This document shows, in pieces, positions 1,944 to 11,909 of a stretch of 37,703 nucleotides of DNA. Below the pieces are notes generated by a model. The model was not told the origin of the DNA. It worked only from the letters and a program-made list of their open reading frames with translations, and searched no databases. The DNA comes from an uncultured bacterium. GTDB taxonomy: Bacteria > Lernaellota > Lernaellaia > Lernaellales > Lernaellaceae. Position 1 is the stretch's first letter. The number at the start of each line of letters is the position of its first letter. A program made the position numbers and the translations under genes. The stretch covers positions 1 through 37,703 of the forward strand of contig CAZHPN010000039.1 of NCBI GenBank assembly GCA_964534375.1, given 5' to 3'.

Positions 1944-1983
1944 GAAGGCGGAAGGCAGTAGGCAGTAGGCAGAAGGCAGAAGC
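1944..1983. repeat. Short heptamer tandem repeat (AGGCAGT/AGGCAGA)
   Basis: gaaggcggaaggcagtaggcagtaggcagaaggcagaag directly after the stop codon of the FGE-domain gene. Confidence 0.7.
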
Positions 1984-2162
1984 CGACGGGCGCGAAGGGC
2001 AAATTGGCTTTGTTTCGTAATTTTGCTTAAATTGGCGCGTTGATGGCCGCCATAGATCGGCGATCGCGGCGGGAAAAATGACGTTCCCAGCCGTTCGCGG
2101 GTGATAACTTATATCAAGATAACATCTTCCGGCGACGGGAATCCAGGGACATAAACGCCCTT

Positions 2163-2244
2163 ATACGTTCGAACCTGACTCGGAGAATTTCGGCTCGGAC
2201 CTCATACGTTCGAACCTCACGCGGAGAATTTCGGCTCGGACCTC
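2163..2244. repeat. 41-bp direct tandem repeat, 2 copies
   Basis: ATACGTTCGAACCTGACTCGGAGAATTTCGGCTCGGACCTC (2163-2203) and ATACGTTCGAACCTCACGCGGAGAATTTCGGCTCGGACCTC (2204-2244), with 2 mismatches. Confidence 0.9.
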
Positions 2245-2393
2245 ACACCCCTCGACTGCGCTCGGGACAGGCTCCGACGCCGCAAAGACGGACAGAGATC
2301 TAATGACTCCGCCGCCGGTCCGCGGAAATCTGTGAAATCTGCACTACTAATCTGTGGATTGTCCGGTCCCCGGAACCCGGAACCTGAACCTGC

Positions 2394-4448
2394 CTACGTC
2401 ATCCCCATCGCCATGATCGCCGCTTTCGTGGGCGAATCATAAAACTGCCATTGGATCGCCGTGAGGATCGCGTCGGGAACGTCGGCGAGGTCGCGCTTGT
2501 TCTCGCTGGGAATCAAAATTCGCTTAGCGCCGGCTTCCACGGCGAGCTGCATGCGCTCGGGAAGCGAGGAGACCTTGAGCAGCATGCCCTGCACGCTCAT
2601 CTCCCCGAGCACAACCGTTCGGTCGAGAACCGGCTTTTCCAGAACGGCGGAGACAAGCGAGATGAAGAACGCGACAGCCGTTTCCGCCCCCTCTTTCGCC
2701 TGATTCAGATTGATCGCTTGGACCGTGAAATCGTAGGCCTTGAGGTCGTGGTCGATCCCCAGGTTCTTGATGTTCGCTTTCAAGTAGGCATCGGCCGTCT
2801 TTATTGCTTCCTTCATTTTGCTGGATAAGTTGCCCAACGGTATGATGCGGCCTGAGCCCCGGTTCATTTGCGTCTGAAGCAGGAACAATGCGAGGCGATA
2901 TTCGCTCACATCGCTGCCGACAGTATAGATGCTTCCCGGGGGGAGGCCGCCCTCGGTGATGATCGTGGCGCCTCCCATCTCCGGCAGTCTCACGAACGTC
3001 TCTTGGCCGCTTTCCCTGTCGATATACGAGAAGCTGGTGTCCCAATACTCGAGCCCGCCCATTTTCTTGAGCTGCTCCTTCACGCGTCGGCGCATTTCCA
3101 TGGCGTACGCGAGATACTCCTCCAGTTCCTCTTTCGACACTTCGCCGTCGGGGTTGAGCAACTTGATCAGGCCGGAGACCGTCTTGCGAACCGCCTTTTG
3201 GTCTCGCCCGCCGAGGTGCGGGCCGAATTTGAAATGGCGTTCGGCGAAATCGGCGTAGCCGCTCTTGCGGAATTCGCGAAACACCTCGGCGAGGTAGTCG
3301 GTAACGAGGCCGAAATGGTCGGTGTAAGCTGCGTCCGAGGTTTTCTGAAACTCCCACCCGGGCACATAGGCGTGGATGCGGTCGTAGAAAGCCGTGTCCA
3401 TTTCTTTCGGCAGCGGGTAGAATAGATGGGACGTGCGAACGATCGTTTCGATGTCGCCGTCGATGTTGCCGACGAACACCACCGAACCCTCGGCGGTGAT
3501 GATGTCCCTGCCGCGGCTGAAGGCGCCGTCCTCCATGTAGCCCTTCATGATGTTGATGCCGTTCTTGTCGGTGAAATGAATGCCGGCGGCTTCGTCAAAG
3601 GCGACAACGTCCCACAGGGCGACGAGTCCCCGCTGCCCGGTGCTGAGGTTCACGAACATCTGCGCCGTCGTCGTCTGGCCGCCGGAAATGAGGTGCGAAT
3701 ACGGGCTGATCTGCTGGTAGACAAAGCTCTTGCCGGTTCCCCGCGGACCCAACTCGATGGAGTTGAAGTTCTTTTCCACCAGCGGCAACAGCCGCAGCAT
3801 GTAATGAAACTTGCGCCTTTTTGTGTAATACGGATGGTTCGGCTCGTAACCCATCGAGCGCATGATCAGGTCGAGCCACTGCTCGCGGCTGAAACGCCGC
3901 CGGGCCTCGACGAAGCGATCGACGTTTCGGGTGGAAAGCTGGATCGGCCGCAGGCTTTCGACGACGAAGGGGCGATTTTGACCTTTGAAAACGAAGGAGT
4001 CATCGTAGCGGAGCGTGATCTCCGCCCAGATCCCACCCATCAACAGGCGGTCGTGGGCGCGAATTTCTTTCTCGTCGATATTGATGTAGTCGAGGTCGAG
4101 ATTGGCAAGACGCGCCCAGTATTTGTCGTGGGTTTCGACCAGGCGCACCGAAATCTTGTCGATAATCTCGTAGGTCGTATGCTGTTTGATGGCCGACTTC
4201 ACCGCTTCGCGTTCGTCGGGTTTGACATATTTGCTGGCCAGCGTTTCCCTGACGAATTCCAAGCCTTCGCGGATGGCCTCGTCGTCGGTGGACGCGCAAT
4301 ATTTGCCGAGCAGGAACTCGATCACAAACGCCGGCACGCCGAAGACGCTGCGCATGCGGCGCAGGAGGTCTTTGCGGACCACCAGGCCCGGAAAAACCTC
4401 GTTGGCCAGTCGATCCAGTTCATCGAGTTCGAACGGCTGCTCGTTCAT
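2394..4448 (-). CDS. brxL: BREX AAA+/Lon-like protein BrxL
   Basis: 684 aa. N-terminal FPGLVVRKDL and VPAFVIEFLLGKYCA, Walker A ELGPRGTGKS, Walker B VAFDE, C-terminal Lon-like domain (VVLGEMSVQG, GAKRILIP). Last gene of the BREX operon, after pglZ. Confidence 0.93.
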   Translation of the reverse strand: MNEQPFELDELDRLANEVFPGLVVRKDLLRRMRSVFGVPAFVIEFLLGKYCASTDDEAIREGLEFVRETLASKYVKPDEREAVKSAIKQHTTYEIIDKISVRLVETHDKYWARLANLDLDYINIDEKEIRAHDRLLMGGIWAEITLRYDDSFVFKGQNRPFVVESLRPIQLSTRNVDRFVEARRRFSREQWLDLIMRSMGYEPNHPYYTKRRKFHYMLRLLPLVEKNFNSIELGPRGTGKSFVYQQISPYSHLISGGQTTTAQMFVNLSTGQRGLVALWDVVAFDEAAGIHFTDKNGINIMKGYMEDGAFSRGRDIITAEGSVVFVGNIDGDIETIVRTSHLFYPLPKEMDTAFYDRIHAYVPGWEFQKTSDAAYTDHFGLVTDYLAEVFREFRKSGYADFAERHFKFGPHLGGRDQKAVRKTVSGLIKLLNPDGEVSKEELEEYLAYAMEMRRRVKEQLKKMGGLEYWDTSFSYIDRESGQETFVRLPEMGGATIITEGGLPPGSIYTVGSDVSEYRLALFLLQTQMNRGSGRIIPLGNLSSKMKEAIKTADAYLKANIKNLGIDHDLKAYDFTVQAINLNQAKEGAETAVAFFISLVSAVLEKPVLDRTVVLGEMSVQGMLLKVSSLPERMQLAVEAGAKRILIPSENKRDLADVPDAILTAIQWQFYDSPTKAAIMAMGMT

Positions 4449-4455
4449 GCCCGCC

Positions 4456-7038
4456 TCACATGTCTCGACCGACCGTCAGCGTGATGCCGCCTGCGGGAAA
4501 TTGCTCCAAAGTCTCAACGTCGCGGATGTCGAGTTCGAGCAGTTCCCCTTTCGCAAAAGACGCCGCCGAGTGGAAAAAAAGTTTCACAACCTGTTCCCTG
4601 TTTTTGCCATCCAGACGCACTTCCTTCGGCTTGCCCGCCAGCACGGACCTGAGTTCGCCGTCGGCATCTTTGCGCCGCACATCCAGGGACAAATTGCGGC
4701 CCATTTCCGCAAAGAGACCGAGTTGGGTTCCCGTTTCGGTTGCCGTCGAAACCGGACTGAGGACAACTTTGACCGCCGTTTGCATCAGCTCAAGAGCCGG
4801 CAGCACAACCTCGACGCCGATCCGCTTTGCCTTGGCGGCATGGCCGCGTGAAACGAGATGCGGAATAATTAGTTCCTGAAGAGAAGCGCCGCCGTGTGAG
4901 AAAGATTTTTCGCACTTGAAGAACGCCAGCCCCGGCGGGACAGCGACGAAATATCTCGCATCCCAGGCGAACGGAAAGCGCGCCAACGGGATATCCGCCT
5001 CGGCGGAAACCAGGGCGAAGCGTTCCTTCAACACGAGGCGCCATTCCTTCGGGAAGGGAACCTCGCTCGGCAGCCTGGCTTCGTCGAGCAAGATGAAACC
5101 GTGATCCGTGACGACATGAACTCGCGGATAGCCCCACCGGTGCAGATTACGGATGAGCCGGCCGAGCCGGTCGATTTCGGGCTGCACGTGGCGGGTTAGA
5201 GCGCCTGCGTTGCCGTGTCCGATATGATCCACATCGTCGTGGCCGAAAACGACCAGTAGCTCGCCGAGTCCGTCCGGCGCTTCGGGCGCCGCTTCCACCT
5301 CGGAAATCTCTCGGCAGTCGGCGCCGAAAGCTCGGAGCAAGGCGATTCGGTTGTCTCTGACAAAGGTGTCCTTGCCGTTGACGAGCGGATGGATGGAATT
5401 GTCTTTGAGATCGACCGCGATCGTGGCGCCGGCAAGCGGCAGCAGCGCCGTCATGCCGATGGCGGTGACCGTGGGCAAGACCGCGAGCAGCGGCTCGACC
5501 TCGACCGCATGACCGCGCAGCAATTCTTTGATCGCCAGGGCGCAATCGTAACGGAGCGCGTCGACGATCACGACGGCCCGCCGGCCGCTCGCCTGCCAGA
5601 TTGCGCGCTCCAAATGGGGCGTGACATCCGGAATCCCGGGAATTTCCAGTCGGCCCGATTCCGCGAGCCGTTTGAAGAAAGAGTCGTTGAGCGCCGTCGC
5701 GTAGTCGGCGTACGCCCGGTCCGCCGCCTTTGCCACGGACGGCAACGTTTGTTCATCGGCTCGTTGGCGGAGGTCAAGGTGACGGCCCTCGATGGCGCCG
5801 GCATTTTCCACATACTTCCCGGCGAGCGCTTCGGTCGTAATCGCCCATTCAAGTTTTCGCTCGGCTTCGGCGCACACCCGGACGAAGGCGCCAAGATCGC
5901 GGAGGAGATCCCACGCCCCCACCGGCGCGGGGCTTGCCTTGGCAAACTCGGCTTCGCGCGCCAGGAGTTCGCCGTAGATTTTGAAGTACTCTTCCACGGC
6001 CGATTTCCTGGGCGCGGCCTTCTCAAAGTCCGAAATCACCTGGCCCCAGCGCAGCCGAACCAGGTGCGGGAACCCGAATGAAATCCCCGGCCGGCCCCGC
6101 GCCCACGACGTGAGATCGATCTCGGTTTCGACGGCGGCAATCCAGCGATCCCAGGCCTGGCGGTATTCGGAATCCCGGAGCCATCGTTGCAGCAGGTGAC
6201 TGTGCTGCGACCGCAGCGCCAAAGGCGGCAAGCGATCCGCAAACGGAAAATCGGCCGGTTCTCGATAGCCGAGGAACGTTTCGGTCAGGGCCAGCGTCGC
6301 GACCAAATCCAGAATCCATTCGGCCGGCGCCCGCACGGGCTGGTCGTAGCCGTAGCGTTCGCGCACCATATCCAGGAACTCGCGGTCCAGAGCGCTCTCT
6401 TGCAGCTTCGCCCACTCTTCATCCGGCTCCATCGCCAGATCGAGAATCGTTTGCTCGACATCGCCGATCAGCAACAACTGGGCCGACTCGGCCGTAAGCG
6501 AGCGCGCCCAGAACACCGGGGGGCGGTCGGCGAACTTGGCGACGTATTTGGCCAGCAGTGAGTCGCGCCCGCCGTCGTAAAGACGGCGCTGCTCGGCCGG
6601 ATTGTCCGGCAGCGGCACATCGGCCTGACGCAGCAGGCTGAAGAGCGTCGGGCGCTTGCCGCCGAGGCGCCAGATCACCCCGGCGGTCCGGTATTCCTCC
6701 AGGAAGTCGAGGCGCGGGCGCCCGTCGCCGTCCGGATGGTCGAGTCGGTCCTCGGACATCGGCAGGTACAGCACGAAGCGCAACCCGTCGCGGTCGCTCG
6801 GCGGCGACTGGGCGGCCAGCGTATGCACCCGATGCTTCAACCAAATCTGGCCTCGCAACTTTTCTTCGTCATACGCCAGAAGAACGAACGGCGGCCGCGG
6901 CATCCCCGCCAAGTGGGCTTGCAACGCGGGCAGCAGCCGCGCGAATTCCTGCTTCTCGTCGAACCAGAGGCACACCTGGGCGCGTTTCTCGTGCTGAAAA
7001 CGCTGCTCGAGCTGGCTCACCAGGCATTCCAGAATCAT
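4456..7038 (-). CDS. pglZ: BREX alkaline-phosphatase-fold protein PglZ
   Basis: 860 aa. PglZ motifs IVDALRYD, LPTVTAIGM, VVTDHGF, FSHGGASLQE. Start overlaps the upstream stop (ATGA at 7035-7038). Confidence 0.93.
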   Translation of the reverse strand: MILECLVSQLEQRFQHEKRAQVCLWFDEKQEFARLLPALQAHLAGMPRPPFVLLAYDEEKLRGQIWLKHRVHTLAAQSPPSDRDGLRFVLYLPMSEDRLDHPDGDGRPRLDFLEEYRTAGVIWRLGGKRPTLFSLLRQADVPLPDNPAEQRRLYDGGRDSLLAKYVAKFADRPPVFWARSLTAESAQLLLIGDVEQTILDLAMEPDEEWAKLQESALDREFLDMVRERYGYDQPVRAPAEWILDLVATLALTETFLGYREPADFPFADRLPPLALRSQHSHLLQRWLRDSEYRQAWDRWIAAVETEIDLTSWARGRPGISFGFPHLVRLRWGQVISDFEKAAPRKSAVEEYFKIYGELLAREAEFAKASPAPVGAWDLLRDLGAFVRVCAEAERKLEWAITTEALAGKYVENAGAIEGRHLDLRQRADEQTLPSVAKAADRAYADYATALNDSFFKRLAESGRLEIPGIPDVTPHLERAIWQASGRRAVVIVDALRYDCALAIKELLRGHAVEVEPLLAVLPTVTAIGMTALLPLAGATIAVDLKDNSIHPLVNGKDTFVRDNRIALLRAFGADCREISEVEAAPEAPDGLGELLVVFGHDDVDHIGHGNAGALTRHVQPEIDRLGRLIRNLHRWGYPRVHVVTDHGFILLDEARLPSEVPFPKEWRLVLKERFALVSAEADIPLARFPFAWDARYFVAVPPGLAFFKCEKSFSHGGASLQELIIPHLVSRGHAAKAKRIGVEVVLPALELMQTAVKVVLSPVSTATETGTQLGLFAEMGRNLSLDVRRKDADGELRSVLAGKPKEVRLDGKNREQVVKLFFHSAASFAKGELLELDIRDVETLEQFPAGGITLTVGRDM

Positions 7039-8936
7039 CGGACCACCTTCGCCACGCGCAACGCTCCGGCTTTCTCCCAGGGTTCGATGTTGACCTTGAC
7101 GCCGTCATCGAGGTCCGGGTCCCACCCCTTCGGCAGCTCCTCCGCCTTTTTCCAAGGGGTCAGGATTCGGAAATCGTCCTCGCCGCCCTCTTCGCCTTCG
7201 CGGCGACCTTCCTGGATCGCCTGAAGCTTGCGTTCCAGCGCGTGCGTTTCTTCGATCCTGGTCTGAAAATCCAGCCGGTCGTCGGTGCGCCCGGCCTTGT
7301 CGGCAAGCGCCGCCTCGCGCCGGAAATTCTCGATGGCGTCGCGCAGATAAGTCGACCGCAGCTTCGCGAGCCGATTCTTGTCAAAGCGGTGGTAATGGAC
7401 GAGTACGCCGAAAGCCGCCGGCGCCGTACCTTGCGCCGACGCGATGTGCCAAAAGATCGGCCGCCGCTTGTAGAGCGAGCAATGGTATTCGAAGTAGGCG
7501 TTTTCGAGCCATTCCTCGAGGCTGCTGCACCGGCGATAGCCTTTCACGTTTTGTTTCAATTCGTTGACGATTTCCACCTCAACTTGATTGGCGTCCCGAT
7601 CGGGAAAGAACTCCGCCAATTCACCCCTGACCCGATCGACAAGGCGTGGCTCGTTGTTAATCGGGTCGAAGGGAACCATGCCGTCATCAGCGGCTTCGAC
7701 GACGCGTTTCACCGCATAGGAGAGCAGCCGCCAGATATGCTCCATGCGTTTCTGTTCAAGCGATTTCCCAGCAAGAACTGACCACAGTATCTCCCTTGGG
7801 CGATCTCCGACTGCTTCTTTGACGACGCCCCGCATGTGGTCATTCAACCCATATAGGCTAAACACGTGGTCCTCAATTTCAGCAAATTTTTCGCATATCT
7901 CGATCTCTGTCTCCCTTTCGCGCCGTGCAAGCGTGTCCAAACGCTCACCAATTGTTGGCGTGGCACTGTTGCCCAAATATTGCCGATCAACGATCCAGGC
8001 CGATTTGAAGTGTGTAGATACCTCATTCCCGTCGTCCCAGTTCATCTTAGAGTCATAAATCGAACGTGCGCGTTCAGACAAAAGTCTTTGTTGCTCGGTA
8101 CGGGTGGCCGGGATAGGAATCCCCTTAATCACGTGTAGTTCCCAACGAGCCCCCATCTCTTTTCGAGATAGCCTCGCTCTCATTATGTACTCAGCGACCG
8201 TTGAATTGGCGACTGCAGAAACAAACCACAAATCGTCGGCGTTATTCAAAAGAACGGCTGGACCTTTATCGGAAAATACGCAGTCTGGCGGCAAATACCG
8301 CATACTAAATTCACCACCAGCACGCGGCCAAGTGAGTCCCTCGCGAAAATATAACGTGCTGTCGCGGAGACGGTGAAATGCTCGCTGCGCCTCAGGCGAC
8401 CAGTCGATCACAAGATTGGCATCGAAGTAAAAACGGCTGAAAGCCCCGCCCTTGTGGAGTGTTTTCCAAGGGCGAATGTCCCGTGTCGGTGACACCTCCC
8501 AATGATATCGAAGGAAAGGTTCATCGGGCCTAATGATGACACCTTGAACAACCGTCGCAACGGAGCCCAAAGCTGGGGCATTACTCGTAAGAGAAGCGAC
8601 CAGTGCGACGCGATCATATGCGAAGGGAGAACTCTCTAACGCTGCGAAATCCCTCAAGGGGACATCATATCGAACCTTATCTATCTGCCCGCGTAGGGCC
8701 TTTACAAACACTGCTTCGCGATCGGCCGCCACACCAGCGATTGAAGGCAGTGACTGTAGATCGAAGAAAGCGGCGCGTTCCACCTCGGTGACAACGTAAT
8801 ATGCATGATCCGCTTGTTCGTATGTTGTTTCGATGCCTTCCCGCGCTTGGGTCGCCTGAATAGTTGACACCATGAGCTTTCGTCTCAAGTCGGCGTCAGC
8901 GAGGATATCCTTTACTTTAATGCGTTTACTTCCCAT
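7035..8936 (-). CDS. pglX: PglX C-terminal half (target-recognition + C-terminal domain) with an N-terminal putative Fic-antitoxin segment
   Basis: 633 aa. From about residue 55 it shows PglX TRD-type motifs (SPFAY, FLRYHWEV, KGG..SRFY, YFREGLTW, RYLP..VFSDKG, ANS). The tail matches PglX C-termini (YKRRPIFWH, DLDDGVKVNIEP). No SAM-binding or NPPY motif. Residues 29-34 are TQAREG. GGAGA RBS upstream; start overlaps the Fic gene end by 11 bp. Confidence 0.85.
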   Translation of the reverse strand: MGSKRIKVKDILADADLRRKLMVSTIQATQAREGIETTYEQADHAYYVVTEVERAAFFDLQSLPSIAGVAADREAVFVKALRGQIDKVRYDVPLRDFAALESSPFAYDRVALVASLTSNAPALGSVATVVQGVIIRPDEPFLRYHWEVSPTRDIRPWKTLHKGGAFSRFYFDANLVIDWSPEAQRAFHRLRDSTLYFREGLTWPRAGGEFSMRYLPPDCVFSDKGPAVLLNNADDLWFVSAVANSTVAEYIMRARLSRKEMGARWELHVIKGIPIPATRTEQQRLLSERARSIYDSKMNWDDGNEVSTHFKSAWIVDRQYLGNSATPTIGERLDTLARRERETEIEICEKFAEIEDHVFSLYGLNDHMRGVVKEAVGDRPREILWSVLAGKSLEQKRMEHIWRLLSYAVKRVVEAADDGMVPFDPINNEPRLVDRVRGELAEFFPDRDANQVEVEIVNELKQNVKGYRRCSSLEEWLENAYFEYHCSLYKRRPIFWHIASAQGTAPAAFGVLVHYHRFDKNRLAKLRSTYLRDAIENFRREAALADKAGRTDDRLDFQTRIEETHALERKLQAIQEGRREGEEGGEDDFRILTPWKKAEELPKGWDPDLDDGVKVNIEPWEKAGALRVAKVVR

Positions 8937-11909: not shown

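Follow-up and report, generated by a model that had tools for sequence, protein, structure and literature searches.

The window studied here is a stretch of 37,703 nucleotides, positions 1 to 37,703 of contig CAZHPN010000039.1 from an uncultured bacterium of the Lernaellota (assembly GCA_964534375.1), and its minus strand carries a complete type 1 BREX (bacteriophage exclusion) operon, brxA-brxB-brxC-pglX(N)-fic-pglX(C)-pglZ-brxL. In this operon, the gene for the methyltransferase PglX is divided in two, a gene for a Fic-fold enzyme lies between the halves, and the second half begins with a helical hairpin. We found that fic within a split pglX is a conserved and widespread subtype of BREX type 1. 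Structure prediction suggests that the Fic enzyme is probably docked on the specificity subunit of PglX through the hairpin, and we put forward the hypothesis that it serves there as a guard.

The first-pass annotation of this DNA, made from the sequence alone, had proposed the order pglX(N), fic, an antitoxin-like segment fused to pglX(C), and pglZ, and the open reading frames (ORFs) together with Pfam, PADLOC, and NCBIfam models give the same order. All six BREX type 1 core families were detected with these models, in the canonical order and co-directional. The overlaps that had been described between the ORFs are present, of 4 bp (ATGA) at 11906-11909, 9786-9789, and 7035-7038, and of 11 bp between fic and pglX(C) at 8926-8936. 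The annotation had allowed that reads might not support the arrangement; both fic junctions are spanned, with zero differences, by contigs from two further DNA runs. It had also seen no terminal repeats and no transposase. No direct or terminal inverted repeats were found at the flanks of the fic region (8300-10300), so that part of the statement stands, and the part about transposases holds for the operon genes scanned with Pfam and PADLOC, as no transposase-directed scan of the window was made.

A single PglX polypeptide of about 1200 residues was not found; instead there are two ORFs, of 707 and 633 residues. Residues 31-696 of PglX-N correspond to positions 2-604 of the 1210-position NCBIfam BREX_1_MTaseX model, the model for BREX type 1 PglX, and residues 78-409 of PglX-C to positions 644-982 of the same model. 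PglX-N has a Pfam Eco57I match and aligns with residues 60-375 of Escherichia coli BrxX, and S-adenosylmethionine-binding and NPPY motifs can be read in its translation. Residues 95-243 and 464-571 of PglX-C correspond to residues 647-804 and 1050-1147 of the solved E. coli BrxX. Among the PADLOC models, some have only 593-682 positions, which suggests that there are also C-halves lacking the hairpin. In Salmonella PglX, the methyltransferase domain extends to residue 661, the hinge is at residues 654-659, the target-recognition domain is at residues 662-849, and Ocr binds to the C-terminal domain, as described in PMC11341690. Because the limits of the matches to the model and to BrxX agree with the hinge of the Salmonella protein, we assign the cut, from these alignments, to the hinge between the methyltransferase and recognition halves, and this would give a methyltransferase subunit and a specificity subunit.

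One genome per species was scanned with the Fic protein, and the gene order in the resulting 18 loci was checked by tblastn with the proteins of the window. The fic gene lies between the pglX halves in all 18 loci, PglX-N is upstream of fic in each of the 17 loci that reach upstream, and the N-terminal domain is in frame with PglX-C, downstream of fic, in 18 of 18. Since the same gene order is found in every locus, chance is excluded. The hairpin-pglX(C) gene directly adjoins fic in 15 of them. The hosts are Chromatiaceae, Competibacteraceae, Longimicrobiales, Myxococcales, Thermoleophilia, Actinomycetes, several Acidobacteriota, Desulfomonilaceae, Opitutales, and Puniceicoccaceae, representing at least seven phyla as judged by names, and the genome of the window comes from yet another phylum, a small one. 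Within that phylum, the hairpin domain was seen in this genome alone among 17, and therefore the system looks horizontally acquired there. In metagenomes, 850 relatives of Fic and 876 of PglX-N were found (clusters at 90% identity); the best 120 of the former have 284-295 residues and are 61-77% identical, and the best 120 of the latter all have 680-723 residues. Identical longest-contig values (e.g., 99700, 16216, and 31975) recur between the two lists, which suggests that the Fic and PglX-N relatives share contigs. The pairwise identities of Fic and PglX-N have a Spearman correlation of 0.79 over 13 loci, among which related loci are not independent, and this fits co-inheritance of the two proteins. 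The search for fic between split pglX halves that had been recommended was thus productive, the feared uniqueness to this genome does not apply, and the view of the layout as a product of selection, and not of a disruptive insertion, is upheld by the 18 loci and by the correlation. A plasmid collection held no close Fic homologue, as all 150 records were below 60% identity and none covered 80% of the query.

Other genes and fragments were seen at a few of these loci. Two loci from Chromatiaceae (L001:7177-9879 and L003:6567-9182) have a gene for a ParA/AAA_31-like ATPase of 870-900 residues between fic and hairpin-pglX(C), which is a candidate for a further nested defence gene. In the Puniceicoccaceae locus (L017:6971-7390), the gene in this place encodes a 139-residue PD-(D/E)XK (PDDEXK_3) protein. 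The fic and pglZ frames of a metagenome-assembled genome of Actinomycetes (L012) are fragmented, at 1963-3192 and 5110-7853, either because the locus is decaying or through errors in the assembly.

PglX-C begins with a helical hairpin of about 60 residues that bears T-x-x-x-E-G, the motif of Fic inhibitory helices. The segment that had been called antitoxin-like is readily recognized, as residues 29-34 of the 633-residue ORF, T-Q-A-R-E-G, fit the pattern [S/T]xxxE[G/N]. The model of this N-terminal domain has helices at residues 8-13, 15-32, and 39-62, a loop at E33-G34, and a lower-confidence helix at 70-81, with a predicted local distance difference test score (pLDDT) of 93-98 over residues 10-50. 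The hairpin is kept in all 18 loci, at 53-62% identity to the copy in the window, and the strict motif is present in 16 of the 18 BREX-linked copies; three loci (L015-L017) carry E-N, the other allowed form, in place of E-G. E33 is invariant in three alignments (A1, A5, and A6), and R32 is at least 90% conserved in the hairpin family. The domain is better conserved than the rest of PglX-C, with a mean pairwise identity of 0.64 compared with 0.54. A ribbon-helix-helix fold was considered for the domain, as the sequence pattern is of that type, but it was set aside as less likely because the monomer model has no N-terminal strand and there was no match to a ribbon-helix-helix family or structure. 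A Foldseek search of the PDB with the hairpin model gave nothing at E ≤ 0.001 and 17 weak, unrelated rows; this fold search is uninformative because the helical hairpin is so short. The profile of the small-protein family gave spurious matches to RecA repeats and others among PDB sequences, and no Fic antitoxin.

The product of fic matches the Pfam Fic family at residues 128-230 (E = 2.7e-13). Its model, with a pLDDT of 76, has FICD, Bep proteins, EcFicT, and VbhT as top Foldseek neighbours, and there are 68 matches in the PDB at E ≤ 0.001, of which those listed are all Fic proteins. None of 46 Fic family sequences has [S/T]xxxE[G/N] in cis, and for this reason the enzyme resembles class I, the type that the first-pass annotation had invoked. 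The catalytic positions of the Fic motif other than the second arginine are all invariant in the 46 aligned sequences. Helix 98-119 contains an invariant R-R-E-D-E-G patch; a HMMER alignment places this helix on FICD some 100 residues ahead of the Fic motif of that protein, in a stretch that we take to be alpha1 and not the inhibitory helix. Residues 1-97 (9499-9789 in the window) are a strongly conserved extension with invariant aromatic residues (W6, W8, F15, F17, Y29, Y38, W72, and W79), modelled as short strands and a helix. No relatives of this extension were found in the libraries tried, and the best score in the Atlas language-model search was at most 0.84, with no family named. The extension may be a contact to PglX-N or to a target.

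The modelled complex of Fic and the hairpin gave an interaction prediction score from aligned errors (ipSAE) of 0.92 in three runs, compared with 0.00 for all three controls. For calibration, 58 of 80 solved complexes and 2 of 110 mismatched pairs attained the mark for this score. The runs share at least 77% of their contacts, and the partner pLDDT is at least 68. The predicted interface joins residues 102-120, 217-231, 233-250, and 278-285 of Fic with residues 3-50 of the hairpin, and R220 of Fic and T29 of the hairpin are among the lowest-error pairs. Hairpin residues 24-35 are all predicted to lie on the active-site loop of Fic, residues 217-224, which we take to be the place where inhibitory helices sit in the solved Fic-antitoxin complexes. 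Furthermore, there are natural single-chain proteins, P0273 (915 residues) and P0274 (914 residues), in which Fic continues straight into the hairpin and then into PglX-C. The fusion in P0274 is not a lone frameshift, since its junction is shortened. This count leaves out P0275 (1440 residues, with out-of-frame stretches) and P0276 (645 residues). The natural fusions are independent support for the binding of Fic to the hairpin, and together with the model they make it probable that Fic is docked on the specificity subunit of PglX via the fused hairpin. At residues ~300-310 of P0274, the hairpin motif has E-H in place of the E-G or E-N of the others.

The hairpin also has relatives outside PglX. 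Among 1.8 billion representatives, we found 161 relatives, most of which are free-standing proteins of 50-90 residues that retain E33, G34, R32, Q30, T37, and Y46. Loci of these free-standing homologues were collected from metagenomes (55, scanned with an alignment of seven closer sequences) and from IMG/VR (29), giving 84 loci and 428 kb. The IMG/VR loci (L075-L103) have homologues of 50-65 residues, with the match at ~4001-4190 in most, and several of their contigs are 100-460 kb long. The viral homologues sit among small unknown ORFs and phage genes; phage marks include a TubZ-like tubulin, T4 RNA ligase 1, a tail-tube initiator, a GH108 lysin, and an integrase. Overall, the neighbours of the free-standing homologues are heterogeneous, with SprT-like, NADAR, and response regulator genes and mostly unknowns. 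One two-gene cassette recurs in seven loci (L041, L048, L050, L051, L052, L058, and L065), with a protein of ~140 residues followed by one of 250-281 residues that has the hairpin at its N terminus, and neither protein has a Pfam family. With PHROGs, 15 of 16 small-protein queries had no family, and the other gave one weak match to an unnamed phrog. In loci L037 (2225-3007) and L020 (1912-2832), one hairpin gene overlaps the end of a NADAR gene and another lies ~160 bp downstream of a gene for a SprT-like metalloprotease, and in P0170 a zincin-like domain is fused to the hairpin. Such surroundings recall those of genes for counter-defence or repair.

Several observations weigh against the hairpin being a tether and inhibitor of Fic. 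The hairpin has no Pfam match at E values up to 10 and no NCBIfam or PHROG family. At E up to 0.01, the YhfG model PF10832 has no match in this genome, and hhalign of the hairpin with E. coli YhfG aligns only the 14-residue motif, with a probability of 0.2% and an E of 0.28. Thus, by sequence, the hairpin matches no known Fic antitoxin family tested (YhfG/FicA); in the Atlas search, the YhfG cluster was the only named family, with a score of 0.88, which is a lead only. Another gene stands between fic and the hairpin domain in three of the 18 loci. Near the free-standing homologues, a search with the motif and with the hidden Markov model from alignment A4 found a Fic gene in 0 of 84 loci, and because these homologues keep E33 and yet have no Fic nearby, the hairpin is not a dedicated Fic partner. 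The score of the modelled complex may have been raised by likeness to the solved Fic-antitoxin complexes. Finally, the Fic motif is HPFREGNGRxAF and lacks the full signature HxFx(D/E)GNGRxxR, as the second arginine, R(2), is replaced by phenylalanine in 19 of 19 loci, and F223 is invariant in all 46 aligned homologues. According to Goepfert et al. 2013 (PMC3667792), competent binding of ATP requires a salt bridge from the γ-phosphate to R(2), the inhibitory glutamate normally out-competes the γ-phosphate for R(2), and degenerate Fic motifs are taken to imply new functions. Since R(2), the normal target of the inhibitory glutamate, is absent here, E33 has no R(2) with which to pair, and any inhibition must be non-canonical. 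Judging from the motif, both the chemistry and the control of this Fic enzyme are probably non-canonical.

Weighing these points, we give about an even chance to the explanation that we consider the best overall, that Fic is tethered to PglX-C and controlled by it through the hairpin, as a latent effector of the guard type. PglX would be made as two polypeptides, a methyltransferase half and a DNA-recognition half, and a class-I-like Fic enzyme would be part of the BREX complex, docked on the ~60-residue hairpin of the recognition half. The end of the T-x-x-x-E-G helix would cover the active-site loop of Fic, so that the enzyme would be both tethered to and controlled by the specificity subunit; whether or not this control is inhibitory, we judge the scales to be evenly poised. 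We infer that Fic would be silent while PglX-C keeps the hairpin in place, and that on a changed state of PglX-C it would fire on a presumed target, with toxic effect. The favoured trigger would be a phage anti-BREX factor that, like Ocr with Salmonella PglX, binds to the recognition half or disturbs it, and the outcome would be an abortive backup of the PrrC/EcoprrI kind; this PrrC-like guard trigger is a tentative suggestion, for which we would claim clearly less than an even chance. Control is more likely to be conformational than to operate by release or by decay of an antitoxin, because natural Fic-PglX-C fusions exist. The same covalent fusions argue against the physical release of Fic and against the labile-antitoxin addiction module, which the first-pass annotation had entertained. 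Its structural inference, that Fic is tethered through a fused antitoxin, holds in silico, by the motif and the ipSAE of 0.92, and fails with respect to a known antitoxin family, a canonical R(2), and homologues paired with Fic.

The loss of R(2) is the starting point for a different explanation, in which Fic works as an enzyme in this BREX subtype, with the hairpin as an activating cofactor or a substrate-presenting subunit rather than an inhibitor. The near-invariant R32, beside E33, would supply in trans the arginine that is absent from the Fic motif, and the holoenzyme, once unmethylated sites are recognized, would contribute to normal exclusion by modifying a subunit of BREX, a replication factor of the host, or a protein of the phage. 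This would account for the disappearance of R(2) from every family member along with the conservation of R32 and E33, hairpin residues 24-35 lie wholly within the predicted interface with the Fic loop, and the fusions indicate that Fic and the hairpin are able to stay permanently joined. However, the T-x-x-x-E-G/N pattern, including the alternation of G and N in L015-L017, defines inhibitory helices, canonical BREX type 1 functions without Fic, and we know of no case in which an arginine is supplied in trans to a Fic site. The way in which BREX blocks phage replication is called unknown in the abstract of PMC10164562, which makes an added effector arm conceivable. We regard this explanation as unlikely, and we say the same of the pair formed by an effector arm fired by recognition of unmethylated DNA and a hairpin that activates Fic, taken together.

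The operon might instead contain an addiction or stabilization module, in which a cell that lost either the pglX specificity half or the entire operon would die, so that the BREX allele would be locked in, and no phage would be sensed. The layout, with its overlapping genes, is like that of a toxin-antitoxin pair, and to our knowledge BREX has no nuclease whose loss would punish the cell. However, the putative antitoxin is within a 633-residue protein, and in P0273 and P0274 it is on the same chain as Fic; because it sits in such a large or fused protein, differential stability would be hard to obtain. Furthermore, the ~95 N-terminal residues of Fic and the R-R-E-D-E-G patch are invariant across phyla, which suggests more than one partner. 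We consider such a module improbable. Still more remote is a selfish Fic toxin-antitoxin cassette that was inserted in pglX without benefit and left BREX crippled or neutral. The GC content does dip to 0.52-0.53 over positions 8000-10000 of the window, which include fic and the start of pglX(C), compared with 0.58-0.65 in the neighbouring operon, and Fic genes sit between core genes of type I restriction-modification (R-M) operons, as reported in PMC9881135. Such an insertion is nevertheless at odds with intact ORFs, a cut at a domain boundary, an architecture kept in every locus and in hundreds of clusters with co-divergence of Fic and PglX-N, and a fic region without flanking repeats in an operon whose scanned genes include no transposase. 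We therefore give it very little credence.

The free-standing homologues suggest either that members of the hairpin family have other partners, as a promiscuous module would, or that phage copies act remotely on Fic enzymes. If Fic is the guard that we favour, the phage copies would be decoy antitoxins that re-silence Fic freed by interference with PglX, in an arms race of three layers. We think that this is rather a long shot.

The six core families, their order, and their location on a single strand are common to this operon and to BREX type 1 of E. coli HS and Salmonella D23580. In contrast to those, pglX here is two genes cut at the hinge, with fic between them, and the recognition half has an additional N-terminal domain of 85 residues. 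The class I Fic pairs (VbhT/VbhA, EcFicT/FicA, which is Fic/YhfG, and Bep1/BiaA) share with this system the Fic fold, the lack of a cis inhibitory motif, and a separate polypeptide with [S/T]xxxE[G/N], which is here predicted to lie over the active-site loop; the fic/pglX(C) and E. coli fic/yhfG gene pairs also both overlap by 11 bp. However, the inhibitory element here is fused to a defence subunit of ~550 residues and is not a free small protein, and it is encoded downstream of fic, whereas yhfG is upstream of fic in E. coli. Also unlike class I pairs, R(2) is phenylalanine, Fic has an extra conserved N-terminal domain, and there is no sequence-family match to YhfG. PrrC, in the EcoprrI type I R-M operon, is likewise an effector encoded within the operon of a methylation-based defence, whose complex is presumed to keep it silent; its effector chemistry is different, and the restraining element here is a recognizable domain fused to the specificity subunit.

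Among PADLOC models, the Fic protein is matched best by PDC-S04 (PDLC04839), a Fic-like candidate embedded in BREX, DISARM, or type I R-M operons, with an E of 9.7e-33 to a 205-position model; the best model gives 111.6 bits, compared with 675 bits for the self-match of Fic, and the match is partial. Because it is limited to residues 85-272, the protein here has an extra N-terminal domain and is a distant relative of PDC-S04 rather than a clear member. Candidates of this type are defined by such embedding in bioRxiv 10.1101/2024.01.29.577857, where embedded guard genes in BREX and R-M operons are already discussed; neither Fic nor PglX is named in its main text, and related loci may be listed in its supplements. 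In SoFic (Sofic), a phage-defence protein with a Fic domain, the toxicity is offset by AS1, encoded immediately downstream (PMC12249575), and the similarity lies in having a counteracting element downstream of a Fic-domain protein. SoFic, however, is a stand-alone class II protein that has an inhibitory helix itself, and AS1, a free protein of 47 residues, is described as having an unknown mode of action. Literature searches on BREX, PglX, Fic, and PDC-S04, in the text accessible to them, found no published description of a split pglX with an embedded Fic. This agrees with the first-pass annotation, which knew of no such BREX, and the variant is apparently new to the literature.

The coordinates of the operon are collected in Table 1. 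Contigs from metatranscriptome libraries cover parts of the region, and one of these spans the pglX(N)/fic junction (9702-10069) with 100% identity, which hints weakly at co-transcription and does not prove transcription. Beyond brxL, a plus-strand ORF at 392-1939 has an FGE-sulfatase domain (E = 1.2e-63), and the minus-strand ORF overlying it at 293-2002 (569 residues) has no family and is probably not a gene.

Table 1. Genes of the BREX operon and elements within them, in window coordinates.
Feature	Position	Strand	Support
brxA	16215..17027	-	Pfam BrxA, E 9.2e-17; PADLOC BrxA
brxB	15675..16214	-	Pfam BrxB, E 2.9e-07; PADLOC BrxB, E 5.9e-11
brxC (ATPase), 1269 residues	11906..15715	-	PADLOC BrxC-PglY, E 1.8e-121, full length
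pglX N-half, 707 residues: helical bundle and gamma-class adenine methyltransferase, apparently stopping at the hinge	9786..11909	-	
fic, 287 residues: Fic-fold enzyme with family-specific N-terminal extension of ~95 residues	8926..9789	-	
Fic signature HPFREGNGRTAF, residues 212-223, canonical second Arg replaced by Phe	9121..9156	-	Read from translation
N-terminal domain of the pglX C-half ORF, residues 1-85	8682..8936	-	Structure model; conservation; predicted Fic interface
T29-Q-A-R-E33-G34, fits inhibitory-helix motif [S/T]xxxE[G/N]	8835..8852	-	
pglX C-half proper: target recognition domain, spacer helices, C-terminal region	7035..8681	-	BrxX matches; PADLOC PglX models
pglX C-half, whole ORF, 633 residues	7035..8936	-	
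pglZ, 860 residues	4456..7038	-	Pfam PglZ, E 1.3e-16; PADLOC PglZ, E 9.5e-45
brxL (Lon-like), 684 residues	2394..4448	-	PADLOC BrxL, E 1.2e-275; Pfam BrxL_N, BrxL_ATPase, Lon_C

Two features of this system were unexpected, the absence of the arginine from the Fic motif and the presence of hairpin homologues in phages. The variant, found in hundreds of clusters, physically couples the specificity half of PglX to a well-studied fold via a defined domain of 60 residues, and H212 of Fic, E33 and R32 of the hairpin, the natural fusions, and the separate halves provide handles on the response of PglX to phage DNA or to an anti-BREX protein. As the gene structure implies, PglX would be able to function with methylation and specificity on separate subunits, as type I R-M enzymes do. 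The results also add a Fic subfamily with a non-canonical motif and uncover a small protein family that is common in phage genomes and unnamed in the libraries tried. If the phage copies are indeed decoys, the hairpin family would be a new class of counter-defence proteins, and the split PglX would serve as a natural reporter of the conformation of BREX.

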